From positions 192,001 through 256,000 of the forward strand of contig CAVSIV010000002.1 of assembly GCA_963728205.1 (NCBI GenBank): a stretch of DNA of 64,000 nt, read 5' to 3'. Position numbers and translations under genes: made by a program. Numbering within the stretch: the first letter of the stretch is position 1; each line of letters begins with the position of its first letter. This DNA comes from an uncultured Chloroflexia bacterium (GTDB taxonomy: Bacteria; Chloroflexota; Dehalococcoidia; UBA2979). Shown here piece by piece: positions 36,836 through 44,808 of this stretch. Under the pieces are notes generated by a model. It made no database searches. It had not been told where the DNA came from and worked only from the letters and a program-made list of their open reading frames with translations.

Positions 36836-38283
36836 CCGGCCCGCAGTTCGTCGCGCTGCTCCCGTGGACCGTCCTCGGCGCGACGGCGACGCTGCTGCTG
36901 CTGTACGTCTCGCTCGCGCGCCACCACGCGTCGACCGCCGCGCTCACGGTGGTGGGGCTCGTCGCGGCGTTCGCGCTGCTTCCCGTCGCCGCGCTCGCCG
37001 ACACGCCCGCGGTCACGCCGCTCTTCCGCGTCGACCGCTTCGCGCTTTACTACACCGGCGTGCTGATCGCCGCGGCGACGGCCGTCGCCGTGCTCGCCTA
37101 CGGCTACCTGCGCGACCGCGAGTCCCACCCCGAGGAGTTCTACGTCCTGCTCGTCGCGGCGACCGCGGGGGCCGCGGTGCTGGCCGCCGCGGATCACTTC
37201 GCGTCGTTCTTCCTCGGGCTCGAATTGCTGAGCGTCTCGCTCTACGCGTTGATCGCGTACCCGCGCAGCAGCGCCGCGGCGGTCGAGGCGGGCATGAAGT
37301 ACCTCGTGCTCGCCGCCGTCTCGTCGGCGTTCCTCCTGTTCGGCATGGCGCTGGTCTACGCGGAGCTCGGCTCGATGCAGTTCGAGCAGATCGCGCAGGT
37401 GGTGGCCGGCTTCCCCGGGAGCGTGCCGGCGACGCTCACGCTGCTCGCCGGGCTGGCGCTGCTCGTGGTGGGGATCGGTTACAAGCTCGCGCTCGTGCCG
37501 TTCCACATGTGGGCGCCCGACGTCTATGAAGGCGCCCCGCTGCCGGCGACGGCCTTCGTCGCGACCGTCTCGAAGGGCGGCGTCGTCGCCGTGCTGCTGC
37601 GCTTCTTCACGCTGATCGACTTCCGTCAGTACGGCGTGCTGTTCGCCGTCTTCGCGGTCGTGGCGGTGGGGTCGATGGTGGGCGGCAACCTGCTCGCGCT
37701 GCTGCAGTCGAACGTGAAGCGCATCCTCGCGTACTCGTCGGTCGCGCACCTCGGGTACCTGATGGTGGCGTTCGTCGCGAGCGGCGGGCAGGCGCTGACG
37801 GCGGTGGCGTTCTACCTCGCCGTGTACGTCGCGGCGTCGCTCGGGGCGTTCGGGGTGATGACGCTGCTGTCCGGGGCCGAGGGCCGCGAGGCGGATCGCG
37901 TCGATGACTATGCGCACCTCTTCTGGCGGCACCCCGGGCTGGCGGCCGCGATGACGGCGTCGCTGTTCTCACTGGCCGGCATCCCTCTGACCGCGGGGTT
38001 CGTGGGGAAGTTTTACCTGGTGCTGGCGGGCGCGCAGTCGGCGCTGTGGTGGCTCGTGGTGGTCCTGGTGCTGTCGTCGGTGATCGGACTTTTCTACTAC
38101 CTGCGGATCATCGTCGCGATGTTCCGGGAGGTGCCCGCGGGCGAGTCAGACGCGCCGCGGCGGCCGGCACCGGCGCTCGCGGGTTCGCTCGCGCTGGTGG
38201 TGGTGATCGGCGTGGTGATGTGGCTCGGGGTGTACCCCTCGCCGTTCATCCACGTGGTCCGCGCGCTGGCCGCGACGCTGTAG
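36832..38283 (+). CDS. nuoN: NADH-quinone oxidoreductase subunit N
   Basis: [52 protein letters not shown]. Confidence 0.96.
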
Positions 38284-38361
38284 CGCGCCGCCCACGGCTG
38301 GCTGCCCGGCGAACGGCGCCGTGCGAGCGGGATGAGCGGGCCGGCGCGGCCATACGGAACG

Positions 38362-38397
38362 CGAGGCTGCTCAGCCCGCTGACGCGGGCCGTTCGCC
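38362..38397 (+). repeat. REP-like element (GCCCGC-tgac-GCGGGC core), copy A
   Basis: cgaggctgctcagcccgctgacgcgggccgttcgcc; matches the two copies at 43389-43505. Confidence 0.7.
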
Positions 38398-38428
38398 AGA
38401 GTGCGGCACCCGGGAAGATGATGGAGAC

Positions 38429-40108
38429 ATGTGGACGCTGACCGGCTGGGGCCGGTCGAACCGCGTGGTCGTGCGCATCGCGTGGGCGCTGGCGCTGGTC
38501 GCGCTCGTCTCGGCGGCCATCGCCGCGGCGCGCACGGTCACCAGCGCGTCGAACGTCGCCATCGTCTACGTGGTGGCCGTGCTCGCCGCAGCGGTGACGG
38601 CGGGGAGCGCGGCGGCGGTGGCCGCCGCCATCGCGTCGTTCTTCGCCTACGACCTCTTCTTCATCGCGCCCCACTTCGCGCTCACCGTCGCCGACCCCGT
38701 CGAGTGGGTGAACCTTGCGCTGCTGCTCACGACCGGCATCGTGACGGGGCAGCTCGCCGGGGTCGCGCGGCGGCGCGAGCAGGAGGCGCGCGCCGGCGAG
38801 CGCGACGCCGTCGTGCAGTACGAGGTGGCGCGTGCGCTGGCGGACGACGACATCGAGCGCGCGCTGCACACGGCGGCGGCGGTCCTGCGCGAGGCGACGA
38901 GGGTCGAGGCGGTGCTGATCCGCGCGCAGGTCGGCCCGCGCGACCTGTCGGCCGCCGCGGGCGACCCGCGCGCGGCGCAGCAGCTGCTGCGCTCGGGGCG
39001 GCTGGGCGCCGGCCGCGTGCTCGGCGAGCCGCGCGGCGAGGAGCGCGGCGCCTTCCGCGCGCGCCGCTGGGTCGGGCTGCGCCCGCCCCGGCTGCGCAGC
39101 GCCCCGGCGACGACGCCGGCCTCCGCCGCGCGCGCGGCCGGGCGGCGCTTCGATCACGTGCGCATCGCGTCGGCGCGCGGAGCGGAAGGCTGGATCTCGC
39201 TCGCCTCCGGTCCGCGCGCGGAGTTCTCGGTGGCCGACCAGCGCTTGCTCGCTACCGCCGCCGCGCAGATCGGACAGGCCGTCGACCGGGCGCGCCTCCA
39301 CGCCGACGCCACGGAGGCCGAGGTGCTGCGGCGTGCCGACGACCTCAAGAACGCGCTCCTGAACACGGTCTCGCACGACCTGCGCACGCCGCTCGCGTCC
39401 ATCGTCGCGTCGGCCGACAGCCTGCTCCAGGGCGACGTCGCCTGGTCCGACGGCGATCGCCGCGAGTTCCTCTCCGCCATCGCGGACGAGGGTCGCCGGC
39501 TCGACCGCATGGTCCGCCACCTGCTCGACTTCTCGCGGGTGCAGGGCGGCGCGCTGCGCATCGAGCCCGAGTGGCGCGACCTCGCCACGCTCGTCGCCGA
39601 CACGCTCGACCGGCTCTCCGAGCACGCGGCCGGGTACCTCGTGGTCGCGGACCTGCCGGCCGACCTGCCGCCGGTGCGCATGGACGCGATCGCCATCGGC
39701 GAGGTGATCGGCAACCTCGTGGAGAACGCGGTGCGGCACACGCCCTCCGGCACCGAGATCCGGCTCTCGGCGTCCGTCCTCCCGGCCGGGGAGAGCGGCG
39801 GCGGGCCGGCGGTCGAGGTCGCGATCGCGGACGACGGCCCCGGCATCGCCCCGGAGGCGCTCGCCCATCTCTTCGACCCGTTCGCCGCGGCGGAGCGCGG
39901 GCGCGGCGGGCAGGGGACGGGGCTCGGGCTTGCTGTCGCGCGGGCGCTCGTGGAGGCGCACGGCGGCGCGATCACCGCGGCGAACGGGTCGGGCGGCGGA
40001 GCGCGCTTCGCCTTCCGCATCCCGCTCGACCCGGCCCCCGGCGACCCGGGTGCCCCGCCGCCTGCCGGCCACCCGGCCGCCGCGGCGCCGAAGGCGGCCC
40101 GTCCGTGA
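38429..40108 (+). CDS. kdpD: KdpD-like sensor histidine kinase lacking the N-terminal KdpD/USP domains
   Basis: DUF4118 4-TM block (FAYDLFFIAPHFALTV), GAF, SHDLRTPL H-box, NLVENA, DDGPGI, GTGLGL. Confidence 0.85.
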   Translation: MWTLTGWGRSNRVVVRIAWALALVALVSAAIAAARTVTSASNVAIVYVVAVLAAAVTAGSAAAVAAAIASFFAYDLFFIAPHFALTVADPVEWVNLALLLTTGIVTGQLAGVARRREQEARAGERDAVVQYEVARALADDDIERALHTAAAVLREATRVEAVLIRAQVGPRDLSAAAGDPRAAQQLLRSGRLGAGRVLGEPRGEERGAFRARRWVGLRPPRLRSAPATTPASAARAAGRRFDHVRIASARGAEGWISLASGPRAEFSVADQRLLATAAAQIGQAVDRARLHADATEAEVLRRADDLKNALLNTVSHDLRTPLASIVASADSLLQGDVAWSDGDRREFLSAIADEGRRLDRMVRHLLDFSRVQGGALRIEPEWRDLATLVADTLDRLSEHAAGYLVVADLPADLPPVRMDAIAIGEVIGNLVENAVRHTPSGTEIRLSASVLPAGESGGGPAVEVAIADDGPGIAPEALAHLFDPFAAAERGRGGQGTGLGLAVARALVEAHGGAITAANGSGGGARFAFRIPLDPAPGDPGAPPPAGHPAAAAPKAARP

Positions 40109-40803
40109 CCGTCACCCCGGGCGCGCGCGTCCTCGTCGTCGACGACGAACCGGCGATCCGGCGCGTCGTGCGCCTCAACCTCGAGGCGCGCGGCTACCAG
40201 GTCGAAGCGGTGGAGGACGGTGCCGCCGCGATCGACCGCTTCTACCGCTGGCGGCCCGACGTCGTGCTGCTCGACCTCGGCCTGCCGGACATCGACGGCG
40301 TCGACTTCATCGCGCGGGTCCGCGAGGCGAGCGCCACGCCGATCGTGGTGCTGTCGGCCCGCGCGGCGGAGCGCGACAAGGTGTTCGCGCTCGACGCCGG
40401 CGCCGACGACTACCTGGCGAAGCCCTTCGGCGTGGACGAGCTGCTGGCGCGCGTGCGCGTCGCGCTGCGGCACGCCGTGCGGCCGCCGGGCGGCGCGGCG
40501 GCGGCGCTCGCCGCCGGCGATCTCGCGGTCGACCTCGAGGCGCGCCGGCTGACGGTGCGCGGCGAGGAGGTGCGCCTCACGCCGACCGAGTGGGACCTGC
40601 TGAAGGTCTTCGCCGCCAACCCCAACAAGCTGATGACCGACCGCGCGCTGCTGCGCGCGGTGTGGGGGCCGGAGTACGGATCCGAGAACCACTACCTGCA
40701 CGTGTACGTCGCGCGCCTGCGCAAGAAGATCGAGCGCGACCCCGCGCACCCGCGCACGCTGATCACCGAGCCGGGCGCGGGTTACCGCTTCGTCGTGTCC
40801 TGA
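40105..40803 (+). CDS. kdpE: KdpE-like OmpR-family response regulator
   Basis: VLVVDDE, LLDLGLPD, GADDYLAKPF, YLHVYVARLRKKIERDPAHPRTLITEPGAGYRF; GTGA-coupled to kdpD. Confidence 0.9.
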   Translation: MTVTPGARVLVVDDEPAIRRVVRLNLEARGYQVEAVEDGAAAIDRFYRWRPDVVLLDLGLPDIDGVDFIARVREASATPIVVLSARAAERDKVFALDAGADDYLAKPFGVDELLARVRVALRHAVRPPGGAAAALAAGDLAVDLEARRLTVRGEEVRLTPTEWDLLKVFAANPNKLMTDRALLRAVWGPEYGSENHYLHVYVARLRKKIERDPAHPRTLITEPGAGYRFVVS

Positions 40804-42854
40804 CGTTCGCGCTCGCCGGAGCGCCCGGACTCGACCTCGGCCCCGAGGTGCGTGGGCACGTCGACGACGATCGTGTTCGCGCGGAAGAACAGGTGCACCT
40901 TCAGCCGCAGCGCCGCCTGGTTGTGCAGGACGTACTGCCAGAAGTGCCGCGGCACGAACTCCGCGAGCACGATCACGATGGACCGGCGCGGCTCGGCGGC
41001 GCGCAGCGCGTCGATGTATGCGAGAAGCGGCGGGATCAGCGACCGGTACGGCGACTCGATGATCACGAGCTCCGGGCCGAGGTCCCACTCCGCCCAGCGC
41101 TGCTTGAACGCCTCGGTCTCGGTGGCGTCGTCGCTGACGTGGACGACGGTGGGGTGGTCGCTCATCGACTGCGCAAAGCGGACGGCGCGCAGGGCGGAGC
41201 GGTCGAGGCGGCTGATCGGCGCGATCACGTGGGTCGGCGCCTCGACGGGGAACGCGTCCGGCTCGTCGACCGTCATCGCGGTGCGCACGCCCTCGTAGTG
41301 GCGGTGGATGGCGATCATGATCGCCATCAGGATCGGGATGAGCAGCAGCACGACCCACGCGCCGAGCGCGAACTTCGACGCGCCGACGATCACGGCGACG
41401 ACGCCGGTGGCGGCCGCGCCGACGCCGTTCACGGCGGCGCGCCGGCGCCAGCCGCGGACCTCGGCGCGTCGGCGGTACCAGCGCTTCACCATGCCGGCCT
41501 GGCTGAGCGTAAAGGCGATGAACACGCCGACCGTGTAGAGCGGGATCAGGTTCGTGACGCTCGCGTGGAAGATGATCAGCAGCAGCACCGCGAGCGCGGT
41601 CAGCACCATGATCCCCGTGCTGAACGCCAGCCGGTCGCCGCGGTACTGGAACTGGCGCGGCCAGTAGCCGTCCCGCGCGAGGATGCTCGACAGCCGCGGG
41701 AAGTCCGAGTAGCCGGTGTTCGCGGCGAGCACGAGCAGCACCGCCGTCGAGATCTGCACGAGGTAGTGGAACGGTGACCCGTCGCCGACGAGCACGGCCG
41801 CGAGCTGGCTGATCACGGTCGTCTGCTCGGTGGGGTCGGGGACGATGCCGATGTGCCCGGCGAGGAAGCTGATGCCGATGAAGATCGTCGTAAAGAAGGT
41901 GGCCATCAGGATCAGCACGCGCTGGGCGTGCTTCGGCTCGGGCGGAGCGAAGGCCGGGACGCCGTTGGAGACGGCCTCGACGCCGGTCAGGGCGACGGAT
42001 CCGGACGAGAACGCGCGGAGGATGAGCACGAGCCCGAGCGCGCTGACGGCCTGGTCCGGCACGTACGCCGCCGGCGGGACGTAGGCGGGCAGCGAGCCCG
42101 TCGCGAAGCGGAAGAAGCCCACCGCGAGCAGCCCGAAGATCGCGACCAGGTAGACGTAGGCCGGCGCCGCGAAGATGGTGCCGCTCTCGCGGACGCCGCG
42201 CAGGTTGCCGAGGCAGATCAGCAGCACGAACGCCACCGCGAGCTCGACGCGGTCGGCGAACAGCACCGGGAAGATCGACGTCAGCGCGGCCACGCCCGCC
42301 GCCACGGACACGGCGACCGTGAGCACATAGTCGGTGAGCAGCGACGCGCCGGCGACGAGGCCGGGGATCGGCCCGAGGTTGTCGCTCGCGACGATGTACG
42401 AGCCGCCGCCGGTCGGATACGCGGCGATGGTCTGCTGGTAGCTCGTCACGACGATGATCAACACCAGCACGATCGCGATCGTGATCGGCATCGTGAACAC
42501 GAGCGCGCCTGCGCCGGCCAGCACCAGGACGCGCATGATCTCCTCGGTCGCGTACGCCGAGGACGAGATGTTGTCGGAGGCGAACACGGCGAGGCCCTTG
42601 ATGGTGCCGATGCGCTCGTGGATCTCCATCTCGTTCGGCAGGCGCGCGCCGACCAGGCGGCGCCATGCGCCCTCGATCGCGCGGCTGAGGCGCGAGCCCC
42701 GCTGGAAGACGCCCTCGGTCGCGACGAGATGGCTCTCCTCGCGGCGCTCGAACTTGCCGAGGAACGGGCGCAGGACGCGGATGTAGCGGTTGCCGGGCAG
42801 ACGGCCGCGCCGCTCGCGGTGCGGCGCGGTGTGTGGGGCGCGGTGATCGCTCAT
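40782..42854 (-). CDS. kimA: KimA/YdaO-like K+/H+ symporter (KUP-related APC fold, c-di-AMP-regulated family)
   Basis: FASDNISSSAYATEE, YPTGGGSY, LLTDYVLTVAVS, ALTGVEAVSN, IPLYTVGVF, C-terminal SPYRS...LHNQAA cytosolic domain. Confidence 0.85.
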   Translation of the reverse strand: MSDHRAPHTAPHRERRGRLPGNRYIRVLRPFLGKFERREESHLVATEGVFQRGSRLSRAIEGAWRRLVGARLPNEMEIHERIGTIKGLAVFASDNISSSAYATEEIMRVLVLAGAGALVFTMPITIAIVLVLIIVVTSYQQTIAAYPTGGGSYIVASDNLGPIPGLVAGASLLTDYVLTVAVSVAAGVAALTSIFPVLFADRVELAVAFVLLICLGNLRGVRESGTIFAAPAYVYLVAIFGLLAVGFFRFATGSLPAYVPPAAYVPDQAVSALGLVLILRAFSSGSVALTGVEAVSNGVPAFAPPEPKHAQRVLILMATFFTTIFIGISFLAGHIGIVPDPTEQTTVISQLAAVLVGDGSPFHYLVQISTAVLLVLAANTGYSDFPRLSSILARDGYWPRQFQYRGDRLAFSTGIMVLTALAVLLLIIFHASVTNLIPLYTVGVFIAFTLSQAGMVKRWYRRRAEVRGWRRRAAVNGVGAAATGVVAVIVGASKFALGAWVVLLLIPILMAIMIAIHRHYEGVRTAMTVDEPDAFPVEAPTHVIAPISRLDRSALRAVRFAQSMSDHPTVVHVSDDATETEAFKQRWAEWDLGPELVIIESPYRSLIPPLLAYIDALRAAEPRRSIVIVLAEFVPRHFWQYVLHNQAALRLKVHLFFRANTIVVDVPTHLGAEVESGRSGERERQDTTKR

Positions 42855-42860
42855 CACTCG

Positions 42861-42948
42861 ATTGTCGCGGCGGGGGGCTCAACAACGGCTCAACAACCGA
42901 TGTCGCCGCCGTCCGTTGACACGCCGTTGAGCCGCGGCCGTCGAGACT
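42861..42948. promoter_or_regulatory. Bidirectional promoter with two oppositely oriented 11-bp-period direct-repeat pairs (putative KdpE boxes)
   Basis: GGCTCAACAAC x2 (42876-42897) and CCGTTGAC..CCGTTGAG (42913-42931). On each side the proximal TTGAGC lies exactly 10 nt before a -10-like hexamer (GACAAT on minus, GAGACT on plus). Confidence 0.65.
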
Positions 42949-42996
42949 GAGCGGGCGCCGGAGGGGCCGGCGCATAGAGAGGCACGGGCGCACCCG

Positions 42997-43431
42997 GTGG
43001 ACGTGAGCTGGCTCGGTCGCCGGCTGATGCGGCGCGCCACGCCGGCGCGGCCGTCGCTCGGCGGCGACGCGGACGCGTGGGCCGACGCGTTCGCGAGGCT
43101 GTCGCGTGATGCGCTGACGTGGGAAGTGGCGGGCCGCCCCGCGGACCGCGCCGGCGCCTACGCGTGGGAGTACAGCGTGCGCCGGCGCGGTGCCGTCCCC
43201 GCCGCCGCCTACGGCGCGACGAAGATCGCGCAGCGGCTCGATGTCGAGGAGCTGCTCGAAGTGGAGCGCGCCGCACGGCGCGGCATCCGCGAGGGTCGCT
43301 GGATCATCGTGCCTGGCTCCGCCGAGTGGTCGCTCGAGCGCCAGGCGTCGGTCGCGCTCGGCGTGCAGCTCGCGTGGCCGGACGCGGACGCCGCGGGGCC
43401 GCTCTGTCACGAGGCTCGCTCAGCCCGCTGA
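42997..43431 (+). CDS. Hypothetical protein divergent from kimA
   Basis: 144-aa ORF with host-like codon use and protein-like composition (AYAWEYSV, RWIIVPG); no recognised family. Confidence 0.55.
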   Translation: MDVSWLGRRLMRRATPARPSLGGDADAWADAFARLSRDALTWEVAGRPADRAGAYAWEYSVRRRGAVPAAAYGATKIAQRLDVEELLEVERAARRGIREGRWIIVPGSAEWSLERQASVALGVQLAWPDADAAGPLCHEARSAR

Positions 43432-43505
43432 CGCGGGGCCGTCGCCGCGGGTCCGCTCTGACGACGAGGCTCGCTCAGCCCGCCGACGCGGGGCCGTTCG
43501 CCGCG
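43389..43505 (+). repeat. Two tandem ~55-bp REP-like units (copies B and C)
   Basis: gaggctcgctcagcccgc[t/c]gacgcggggccg at 43411 and 43466. Confidence 0.75.
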
Positions 43506-43512
43506 CCCCGAG

Positions 43513-44808
43513 CTAGATTTCGCGCAGCGTGCGCCAGAACAGCGTGATGCCGACGAAGCAGAGGAAGCACGTCCCCGTGAATGCGCCGACGCCGATCTGC
43601 GGGCCGAAGTGCGTGATCGCGAGGCCCATGGGCAGCGCGCCCAGCGGCGACACGCCGCCGGCCATCTGCCACGCGGCCATCCCGCGCCCGCGCATGTCCT
43701 CGCGCACCAGCAGCAGGAACACCGTCGTGTTCAGCGCGGTGGCGAAGCCGAAGAAGATGCCCGCCGTCGTCAGGAAGCCCAGCGACAGGAGCAGGGCATG
43801 CGACTGCGTGAACGCGGTCACCAGGCCCATGTACCCGGTGAAGCCGATCAGCATGAACAGCCCGCGCCGCCGCACGTCCCCGATGTACGCGAGCAGGAAC
43901 AGGCCGATCGTCGACCCGAGCCCGATCGTCGCGACGAGCAGCCCGTAGCCTTGCGAGCCCGCGTGCAGCACGCGTGACGCGAAGATCGGCATGAACGACA
44001 CGTACGGGTAGACGAGCAGCGCCGTCATGAAGTTGATGACCATCAGCCCGAGCAGCTGCCGCTCGCGCGCGAGGTAGCGAAAGCCGTCGGCGAGGTCGGC
44101 GAACGGCTTGCGGCCGGTGGGGATCGGACGCCCGCTGCCGGGACCCATCATCGCGGTGGCCCCCGTCGCGATCACGCGCATCACGGCGACGAAGACGAAC
44201 GGCGTGCTGATCGAGATCGCCGCGAGCACGCCGGCGAGCGGCGGCCCCGCGATGCGCGCGACGTTCTGCGCGAGCGAGTTCATCGCGACGGCGTTCGACA
44301 GCGTCTCCTCGGTCGAGATGTCGAAGACATACGCCTGCCGCGCCGGCTGGTTCATCGCCATCGTGATCGAGCTGATGACGGCGAAGACGTAGACGTGCCA
44401 CACCTGCACGGTGCCGGAGAGTACGAGCACCGCGATCGCGATCGATTGCAGCGCGCCGAAGAACGTGGCCACGACCATGATCCCGCGCCGCGAGTAGCGG
44501 TCCGCGAGGATGCCGCCAATCGGCGTGAGGAGCAGCGAGAGCATGCCGCCGACGAACGCGACGCCGCCGAGCTGCGCCGCCGACCCGGTGAGGACGAACA
44601 CCAGCCAGGACAGAGCGATCTGCTGGCCCCACTGGCCGAAGCCGACGGCGATCGAGCTGAGGGTCAGGAAGCGGAAGTCGCGGCTCTCGAACGACGCGAA
44701 GGTGCGACGCCACTTCGACGTGACGGGAAGGGCCGCGATGGGGGTGGCGGGCGTCGCCGGGTCGCCGGGAGACGCATCCTGGTGCGGGGCGGCCGGCGAG
44801 GGACTCAC
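43513..44808 (-). CDS. MFS transporter (MFS_3/DUF894-like)
   Basis: 12 TM helices; GGILADRYSRR, NQPARQA, LVREDMRGR. Confidence 0.88.
   Translation of the reverse strand: MSPSPAAPHQDASPGDPATPATPIAALPVTSKWRRTFASFESRDFRFLTLSSIAVGFGQWGQQIALSWLVFVLTGSAAQLGGVAFVGGMLSLLLTPIGGILADRYSRRGIMVVATFFGALQSIAIAVLVLSGTVQVWHVYVFAVISSITMAMNQPARQAYVFDISTEETLSNAVAMNSLAQNVARIAGPPLAGVLAAISISTPFVFVAVMRVIATGATAMMGPGSGRPIPTGRKPFADLADGFRYLARERQLLGLMVINFMTALLVYPYVSFMPIFASRVLHAGSQGYGLLVATIGLGSTIGLFLLAYIGDVRRRGLFMLIGFTGYMGLVTAFTQSHALLLSLGFLTTAGIFFGFATALNTTVFLLLVREDMRGRGMAAWQMAGGVSPLGALPMGLAITHFGPQIGVGAFTGTCFLCFVGITLFWRTLREI

Follow-up and report, generated by a model that had tools for sequence, protein, structure and literature searches.

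A short kdpD, a kdpE-like gene and a homologue of the potassium transporter gene kimA lie side by side in a 64,000-nucleotide stretch of DNA from an uncultured Chloroflexia bacterium (GenBank assembly GCA_963728205.1, contig CAVSIV010000002.1, positions 192,001–256,000), hereafter called the window. All three genes are intact and are situated downstream of a nuo operon (Table 1). It is likely that this split-type KdpD, together with KdpE, controls transcription of kimA instead of kdpFABC, and that the three genes form a potassium-limitation module. By the same comparison of sequences, phosphorylated KdpE (KdpE~P) probably activates kimA from a putative KdpE box in the kimA promoter. A functional tie between the two-component system (TCS) and kimA is supported because the adjacency recurs in three gene orders and the kimA promoter carries a kdp-type KdpE box. 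A preliminary description, made from the DNA sequence alone, had proposed this wiring of KdpDE to kimA, and both lines of evidence favour it. Its account of a short kdpD and a kdpE that converge on a KimA-family gene with a 22-nt overlap is confirmed in genes and coordinates; the stop-proximal ends of the kdpE and kimA open reading frames (ORFs) share positions 40782–40803.

The putative KdpE box falls within positions 42860–42950, and, with the ATG taken as the start of transcription, would span about −43 to −22. It is followed by a −10-like hexamer; there is no −35 consensus in the kimA promoter, and a promoter scan found no sigma-70 consensus there. The same layout of GACAAT, 6 nt and ATG is present in a related locus (L029), and this recurrence suggests that the kimA mRNA is leaderless or near-leaderless. 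In another relative (L146), a box, 9 nt and the hexamer GATAGT precede a kdp operon. According to one report, the Escherichia coli KdpE site consists of a pair of 6-bp direct repeats that have a 5-bp spacer and an invariant TT (PMC3264566), and the geometry of the kimA box agrees with this description.

A weight matrix was made exclusively from 13 sites found before kdp operons in 7 other genomes; these training sites score 21.0–32.9 bits. When applied to the window's own genome, the matrix gives the kimA repeat 27.6 bits. This is the sole match within the training range and the one position that reaches at least 20 bits, the next match being at 19.8 bits. In 138 loci (1.65 Mb) the matrix has 18 matches of at least 20 bits, 10 of them at training sites. 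All eight others sit 39–756 nt upstream of a kimA gene and on the same strand, in seven TCS-linked loci (the window, L030, L038, L049, L133 with two matches, L135 and L141).

Simple patterns give a similar picture. TTGTTGA-N4-TTGTTGA occurs once in the 4.1-Mb genome, at the kimA box, and the looser [GCT]TTGA-N6-[GCT]TTGA occurs eight times, twice at the kimA upstream region. With the strict pattern, the repeat is found at 5 of 12 TCS-adjacent kimA genes vs 2 of 89 others; one of these two is the L049 kimA that immediately precedes the kinase and the other is on a 2.3-kb contig. The strict pattern GTTGA-N6-GTTGA is present in the 450 nt directly upstream of kdpA in one of 11 kdp loci (L159, which has a full-length KdpD). 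The kdp promoters are located 470–1015 nt upstream of kdpA, from which a receiver-only gene and small ORFs separate them, and the boxes at kdp loci were found on reading the whole intergenic stretch. In seven kdp-linked loci, TT[GAT]A repeats with an 11-bp period are confined to the promoter of the kdp operon, mostly as two repeat pairs that are 32 nt apart, the proximal pair being 9 nt before a −10-like hexamer.

The adjacency of the genes is equally recurrent. KimA was matched in 17 of a first set of 41 related genomes, and in four of these a kinase and a regulator like those of the window are beside kimA, in tandem in G040, G031 and G025 and divergent in G028. A kinase search of 301 genomes of the class produced matches in 55 genomes (63 rows), and the surroundings of 41 rows, which represent 40 places, were examined. 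A short kdpD–kdpE pair is beside kimA in 19 of the 40 places (13 tandem, 5 divergent and the convergent window); in 9 the pair adjoins kdpABC, after which comes a separate KdpD-N/Usp gene. A full-length kdpD is found in kdp operons in 3 places, neither kimA nor kdp is adjacent in 5, and the contig is too short to judge in 4. Outside the class, a DUF4118 kinase and a regulator adjoin kimA in 8 of the best 79 KimA loci of an all-phyla scan (three Limnocylindria-like, two Anaerolineae, and one each from Gemmatimonadota, Acidobacteriota and Dormibacterota).

KdpA is present in 3 of the 19 KimA-linked genomes (G028, G203 and G246 (fragments)) and was not found in the other 16; in lineages where no pump was found, the KdpD-N/Usp serine-kinase half was likewise not found. 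Seven of eight genomes with split kdp-linked pairs also hold a KimA elsewhere, and that KimA has no box. The module was not found in three genomes of the same genus with a KimA query, nor in 16 of the same family with a kinase query. It thus appears patchy, and may have been acquired in this genome.

No kdpFABC is present in the window, and profile searches of the whole 4.1-Mb assembly (6 contigs) gave no match to KdpA or KdpC. The KdpD N-domain has one sub-threshold match in the assembly, at 20.4 bits, and this is an ABC ATPase. TrkH and Kup were not found in the assembly either; the sole match to the Kup model is sub-threshold and lies on a second KimA paralogue. The preliminary description had considered that a kdpFABC operon with a separate KdpD-N gene might carry the KdpE boxes elsewhere, and no such arrangement was found in this genome. 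Its statement that the window has neither kdpFABC nor a ydaO riboswitch is upheld by the profile and Rfam searches: the cyclic di-AMP (c-di-AMP) riboswitch (RF00379) is absent from the window and from the kimA leader, and Rfam gives only noise in 37500–44500. The genome has five c-di-AMP riboswitch matches, all elsewhere, three above the cut-off and two just under it. Of 10 Bacillota loci (Paenibacillus, Cohnella, Brevibacillus), 6 have this riboswitch immediately upstream of kimA, and none of 11 TCS-linked Chloroflexota loci has it there. It is plausible from this distribution that the TCS stands where Bacillota have the riboswitch.

The permease can be assigned to KimA over nearly its whole length. 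Residues 66–671 align with residues 7–605 of the 607 of Bacillus subtilis KimA (PDB 6S3K), the cytosolic domain included, at an E value of 3.5e-140, and its closest relatives are KimA proteins of Chloroflexota metagenome-assembled genomes (Limnocylindria and the like). One source gives the K+ site and gate residues of KimA as D36, Y43, D117, T121, S125, T230, E233 and Y377 (10.1101/2023.07.05.547876). By manual mapping all eight are kept, as D95, Y102, D176, T180, S184, T291, E294 and Y441, and they are invariant in a nine-sequence KimA alignment. The strings SDNISSSAY, TDY, GVE and PLY, which had been singled out earlier as retained K+/H+ residues, are all present.

Control of the KimA protein by c-di-AMP may also have been retained. 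The pocket and coupling residues of B. subtilis KimA listed in PMC10284832 are R337, V457, L461, P479, V506, H579, N580, Q581, S582, Y118 and N237. When these are mapped by hand, nine of the 11 are identical (R401, V524, P547, V574, H645, N646, Q647, Y177 and N298) and two differ (L461 is M528 and S582 is A648). A diadenylate cyclase gene is present on the window's contig. As nine of 11 residues are kept and a cyclase is present, it is plausible that c-di-AMP still acts on the protein.

Pfam places DUF4118 at residues 18–121 of the kinase, HisKA at 307–374 and HATPase_c at 419–534. DUF4118 corresponds to four transmembrane (TM) helices in the structural model (7–33, 40–58, 60–78 and 90–136; predicted local distance difference test score 79), and the HisKA/HATPase_c core follows. 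The best NCBIfam model is KdpD, aligned at profile positions 627–886 of 895 only, with 217 bits vs a cut-off of 1123. Among solved structures, the core is best matched by KdpD 6LGQ_C, and the TM part also matches KdpD 2KSF. The phospho-histidine is H316, which, together with N433, G498 and G500, is invariant in a 22-sequence alignment. The KdpD N-terminal (PF02702) and Usp domains are absent from the kinase by Pfam. This domain content is that of a split KdpD's histidine-kinase half and not of a full-length KdpD.

The kinase had been described as TM–GAF–kinase, and the TM part and kinase core are borne out by Pfam. The GAF domain has no Pfam match in the window's protein; it is found by Pfam in 17 of the 22 aligned orthologues, and these, together with the model, suggest that a GAF-like domain may be present here as well. 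The kinase had also been called N-truncated, as if this were a local peculiarity. Judged by the orthologues, TM–GAF–kinase is the ordinary split KdpD form in this Chloroflexota class, and the window's kinase has not been shortened locally; within kdp operons, the KdpD-N/Usp half is encoded on its own, by the last gene, after kdpABC. One study reports this half as a serine kinase that phosphorylates KdpB, and assigns the proposed K+-sensing sites to the TM/GAF part of KdpD (PMC11018627). Since the N-terminal half is reported to act on KdpB and no KdpB was found, its absence is to be expected, and needs neither a replacement nor a co-sensor.

The regulator has the Pfam domains Response_reg and Trans_reg_C, i.e. 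a receiver domain plus a winged helix of OmpR type, and its phospho-acceptor is D57. Its best solved relatives in the PDB are E. coli KdpE structures, with 215 bits vs 164 for MtrA, the next family. The recognition helix is HYLHVYVARLRKK. According to PMC3264566, the DNA-contact residues of E. coli KdpE are R193, R200 and T215; R200 and T215 correspond to R206 and T221 of the regulator, and both are kept. Two types of recognition helix occur among the regulators, each with its own repeat, before kdp and kimA alike. The helix HYLHVYVARLRKK pairs with (G)TT[GAT]AG boxes, and the helix H[VL]LRTY.NQLRAKL pairs with CTGAC/CTTAC repeats.

A maximum-likelihood tree was made of 45 kinase rows and rooted on three full-length KdpD proteins; L146 and L047 (broken ORFs in extraction) and L140 (short) are not part of it. 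KimA-linked and kdp-linked kinases are intermingled on the tree. For example, L158 (KimA) is sister to L151 (kdp) with a Shimodaira–Hasegawa-like approximate likelihood ratio support of 98, and the starred branches require at least four changes of the KimA label. The window's kinase belongs to a starred clade of 21 rows, 14 of them KimA-linked (11 from the class and three from the all-phyla scan), six kdp-linked and one on a short contig. Its top identity is 47%, to the kdp-linked L131. The interleaving indicates that these proteins are orthologues of the histidine-kinase half of split KdpD, with no separate paralogue family, and that the target was switched more than once. On balance, we lean slightly towards TM–GAF–kinase plus KdpE being a portable potassium-limitation cassette whose target would have switched several times between the Kdp pump and KimA, the box being carried along; KimA would then be under KdpDE in transcription and under c-di-AMP in activity.

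From these data we infer a mechanism. The TM/GAF part of the kinase would detect low K+, H316 would become phosphorylated, and the phosphate would then pass to D57 of KdpE. KdpE~P dimers would bind the 11-bp direct repeat at 42876–42897, situated 9 nt before GACAAT where a −35 element would otherwise be, and would recruit RNA polymerase to the probably leaderless kimA transcript. The kdpDE genes have no box and are probably transcribed from their own promoter. Where the genes are in tandem, the box comes after kdpE and ahead of the target gene, and kdpDE must there have a promoter of its own. The activity of KimA is probably still throttled by c-di-AMP.

Several points weigh against this interpretation, and it should be pointed out that the whole case is computational and comparative. 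With respect to the regulator, KdpE is the best NCBIfam model, at 238.6 bits, but this is under the cut-off of 325. E. coli R193 corresponds to H199, and one of the three DNA-contact residues is thus changed; a His at this position is also found in kdp-linked regulators of the same clade. The CTGAC/CTTAC motif was read by eye only. The box is found in part of the KimA-linked loci only (the 5 of 12 of the strict pattern and the seven loci of the matrix), and another OmpR-family regulator could read it. With respect to the kinase, Pfam finds no GAF in the window's protein at E ≤ 0.01, the alpha/beta domain of the model at 142–259 has a low-confidence or disordered 46-residue insert at 192–237, and the protein is on a long branch of the tree (length 1.0). 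The 40 places of the survey come from a search in which only four candidates per genome were scored, and 22 of the 63 rows were left out (21 that match the kinase half only, plus the unpublished G260). The convergent orientation means that kdpDE and kimA are not one operon in the window, where the link would depend on the relatives and the box. The assembly is 89% complete with 5.6% contamination, and a kdp operon in unassembled DNA is therefore possible. In addition, the best NuoN matches in three genomes of the same genus and two of the same family share only 35–37% identity with the NuoN of the window (36838–38283, + strand), which makes the affiliation of the contig uncertain.

Could KdpE act on kimA in the opposite sense? 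When phosphorylated it might repress kimA by occluding the promoter, or regulate kimA and the divergent orfX dually. The box abuts the −10-like hexamer, a position from which polymerase could be blocked, and a mirrored repeat faces orfX. Repression is nevertheless unlikely: the same layout of box, 9 nt and −10 hexamer is found before the kdp operons of relatives, KdpE is an activator in all studied cases of kdp operons, and the lack of a −35 consensus and of a sigma-70 consensus promoter is typical of activator-dependent promoters. It is quite unlikely that the neighbourhood is incidental, with the pair controlling other genes (such as itself or nuo) and the kimA repeat serving another OmpR-family regulator or nothing. 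The convergent orientation, the 146 nt that separate nuoN from kdpD, and the second KimA paralogue beside an unrelated HAMP-type system, which illustrates that such adjacency arises otherwise, would fit this explanation. However, the pairing recurs in three gene orders, both in the class and in the eight KimA loci outside it, the box was defined on kdp promoters and has its sole in-range genome match at kimA, and no box of at least 14 bits precedes kdpD or nuo in the top list of the matrix.

The preliminary description had also raised the idea that KimA is a physical partner of the short KdpD, i.e. a co-sensor that stands in for the N-terminal half. Co-sensing by a transporter and a kinase is known from other systems, and both membrane proteins are encoded together in many genomes. 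We regard this as very unlikely. In the class the N-terminal half has a gene of its own that accompanies kdpABC, the same kinase orthologues serve kdp operons that have no adjoining KimA, and the N-terminal half is reported to be a serine kinase for KdpB, K+ sensing being assigned to TM/GAF (PMC11018627); with no KdpB found, no replacement would be needed. Pfam and NCBIfam label the permease only as AA_permease_2 or amino acid transporter, which might suggest an amino-acid or other APC transporter and a module that is not about potassium, but the near full-length alignment to KimA and the eight of eight K+ residues kept make this highly improbable. Activation of kimA by KdpE~P is the reading that we prefer.

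Table 1. Positions of genes and sequence elements in and around the kdpD–kdpE–kimA block of the window
Feature	Position	Strand	Remarks
REP-like (repetitive extragenic palindrome-like) intergenic element, about 34 nt	38369–38388, 43396–43460, 43464–43497		29 blastn matches in genome
Short kdpD	38429–40108	+	559 aa; Pfam, NCBIfam and PDB matches, model, alignment, tree
kdpE-like OmpR-family response regulator	40105–40803	+	232 aa; Pfam, NCBIfam, PDB
kimA, KUP-family K+/H+ symporter homologue with C-terminal cytosolic domain	40782–42857	−	691 aa; likely true start is ATG at 42854
−10-like hexamer GACAAT	42861–42866	−	9 nt after box, 6 nt before ATG 42854
Putative KdpE box, 11-bp direct repeat GTTGTTGAGCC x2	42876–42897	−	kimA promoter; matrix and pattern
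Mirrored second repeat pair CCGTTGAcacgCCGTTGAgcc	42913–42933	+	faces divergent orfX
−10-like GAGACT	42943–42948	+	9 nt after mirrored pair
orfX	42997–43431	+	144-aa orphan ORF, divergent from kimA

The G+C content of the window is 72%. The nuo operon is on the + strand and ends near 38283; the kdpE start and the kdpD stop overlap by 4 nt, and the kimA-plus-box unit is inverted relative to kdpDE. A terminator-like hairpin with a T-rich tail is at 40731–40752 (− strand), 30–50 nt past the kimA stop and within the kdpE coding sequence. There are two terminator-like sites in the region vs 0.7 ± 0.9 in shuffles. REP-like copies are on both sides of the kdpD–kdpE–kimA–orfX block, and might mark an insertion or rearrangement boundary. 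Judged by sequence identity, the nuo operon beside the module may be a divergent second copy, or the contig may be of other origin. As NuoN is so distant from its counterparts, nuoN synteny in the same-genus genomes is uninformative on insertion of the block.

The mirrored repeat pair is a weaker candidate than the kimA box because its matrix score is 12.6 bits. TCAACGG-N4-TCAACGG occurs once in the genome, at this pair. By sequence and position it could be a second KdpE site or a distal site of the kimA promoter. OrfX has a coding-like G+C content at third codon positions (0.90), no family match in Pfam or NCBIfam and, in a search of 5.8 billion proteins, a single homologue with 62% identity. 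The ORF might be a second target.

Some further arrangements were observed. In genome G203 (L152, contig C41), which was counted as KimA-linked, the pair is in tandem with kimA and the trio converges on a kdp cluster that ends in KdpD-N/Usp; both K+ importers and both KdpD halves are found within 8 kb. In the KimA-adjacent kinases of L115, L116 and L058 (Gemmatimonadota, Acidobacteriota and Dormibacterota), DUF4118 leads straight into HisKA, with no room for GAF; the gene order in L115 is regulator–kinase–kimA. An Eremiobacterota locus (L053), where a kinase and a partial regulator match converge on kimA, was not counted (35% identity over 154 residues). The kimA gene is often duplicated in tandem or clustered (L048 with up to three copies, L049, L051, L057, L090, L096 and L102), and the kinase–regulator pair of L049 has a kimA on each side. 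The second KimA paralogue of the window's genome (G000:C1:223801-225822; L129 4793–7213, − strand) is 47% identical and, judged by its open frame, is extended considerably at the N-terminus. Genes for an OmpR-type regulator and a HAMP–HisKA kinase lie divergent to it; this HAMP-type system was excluded from the counts because it is not KdpD-like.

In the kdp operons of the class, the box is followed immediately by a receiver-only gene (about 120 aa) and then by one or two tiny membrane ORFs, which lead up to kdpA; this arrangement is found between kdpE and kdpA in L132, L134, L136, L146, L047 and L162. An unannotated ORF of about 100 aa is situated between the KdpE box and the target in both kimA loci (L029 7388–7729, L030 7253–7573, L038 10063–10386) and kdp loci (L130, L132 and L146, upstream of kdpF/kdpA). 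These ORFs have a common stretch, ..LA..LA.EY.L......VR..R. Small ORFs between box and target match no Pfam family; there is a weak Usp hint in L124 (E 0.0086). Perhaps the 100-aa ORF could be an unrecognised member of the regulon.

Textbooks and annotation pipelines regard KdpDE as a switch dedicated to the Kdp pump, and to our knowledge control of kimA is known solely via c-di-AMP. A literature search found no description of KdpDE control of kimA in titles and abstracts, subscription journals and supplements being outside its reach. If the proposed wiring is correct, the presence of a Kdp pump could not be predicted from a KdpD/KdpE annotation in Chloroflexota or in some of the Acidobacteriota, Gemmatimonadota and Dormibacterota; 'KdpDE' would cease to imply 'Kdp' in several soil phyla, and KimA would be an inducible importer. 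KUP-family transporters would gain a second mode of control, by a sensor kinase. The joint loss of KdpB and the KdpD N-terminal half would allow the recently proposed role of that half as a serine kinase to be tested by comparison, and its absence where there is no pump would lend natural-history support to the view that it exists only to act on KdpB. The two combinations of helix and box, TTGAG with the His-type and CTGAC/CTTAC with the Arg-type, would represent a small set of natural data on drift of specificity in the OmpR family while the function of the target stays constant.

With respect to known systems, the KdpD/KdpE–kdpFABC system of E. coli differs from the one described here in that the target here is kimA, no kdpFABC was found, and the kinase is without KdpD-N and Usp. 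The half-site here is GC-richer (TTGAGC vs TTTATA/TTTACA in E. coli), and E. coli R193 is a His. The E. coli kdp box presumably lies further upstream of the −10, whereas the box of the window abuts it. The two systems have in common the family of the kinase core and TM part, the regulator family and, going by PMC3264566, a box of two TT-starting 6-bp repeats with a 5-bp spacer.

The split KdpD of Silberberg et al. (2024; PMC11018627) resembles the present case in that the window's kinase is the TM/GAF/DHpCA (dimerization, histidine phosphotransfer and catalytic) chain and that, in the relatives, the KdpD/Usp chain is encoded by the gene that closes kdpABC. The survey of that study was limited to species with an annotated Kdp pump; here, in contrast, the histidine-kinase chain and KdpE adjoin KimA, and the pump and the KdpD/Usp chain were not found. 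B. subtilis kimA, which is controlled by the ydaO/c-di-AMP riboswitch and whose product binds c-di-AMP, shares with the window's gene the transporter family and nine of the 11 c-di-AMP residues. It differs in that no riboswitch precedes kimA here, the proposed transcriptional control being by a TCS.

In pho promoters the pho box, a direct repeat of the OmpR/PhoB family with an 11-bp period, replaces the −35 element beside a −10 hexamer. PhoB-type promoters are like the kimA promoter in mechanism only, as the regulator subfamily and the signal differ. The parts of the module are all known; the novelty lies in how they are wired, in how widely the module is spread and in its box.

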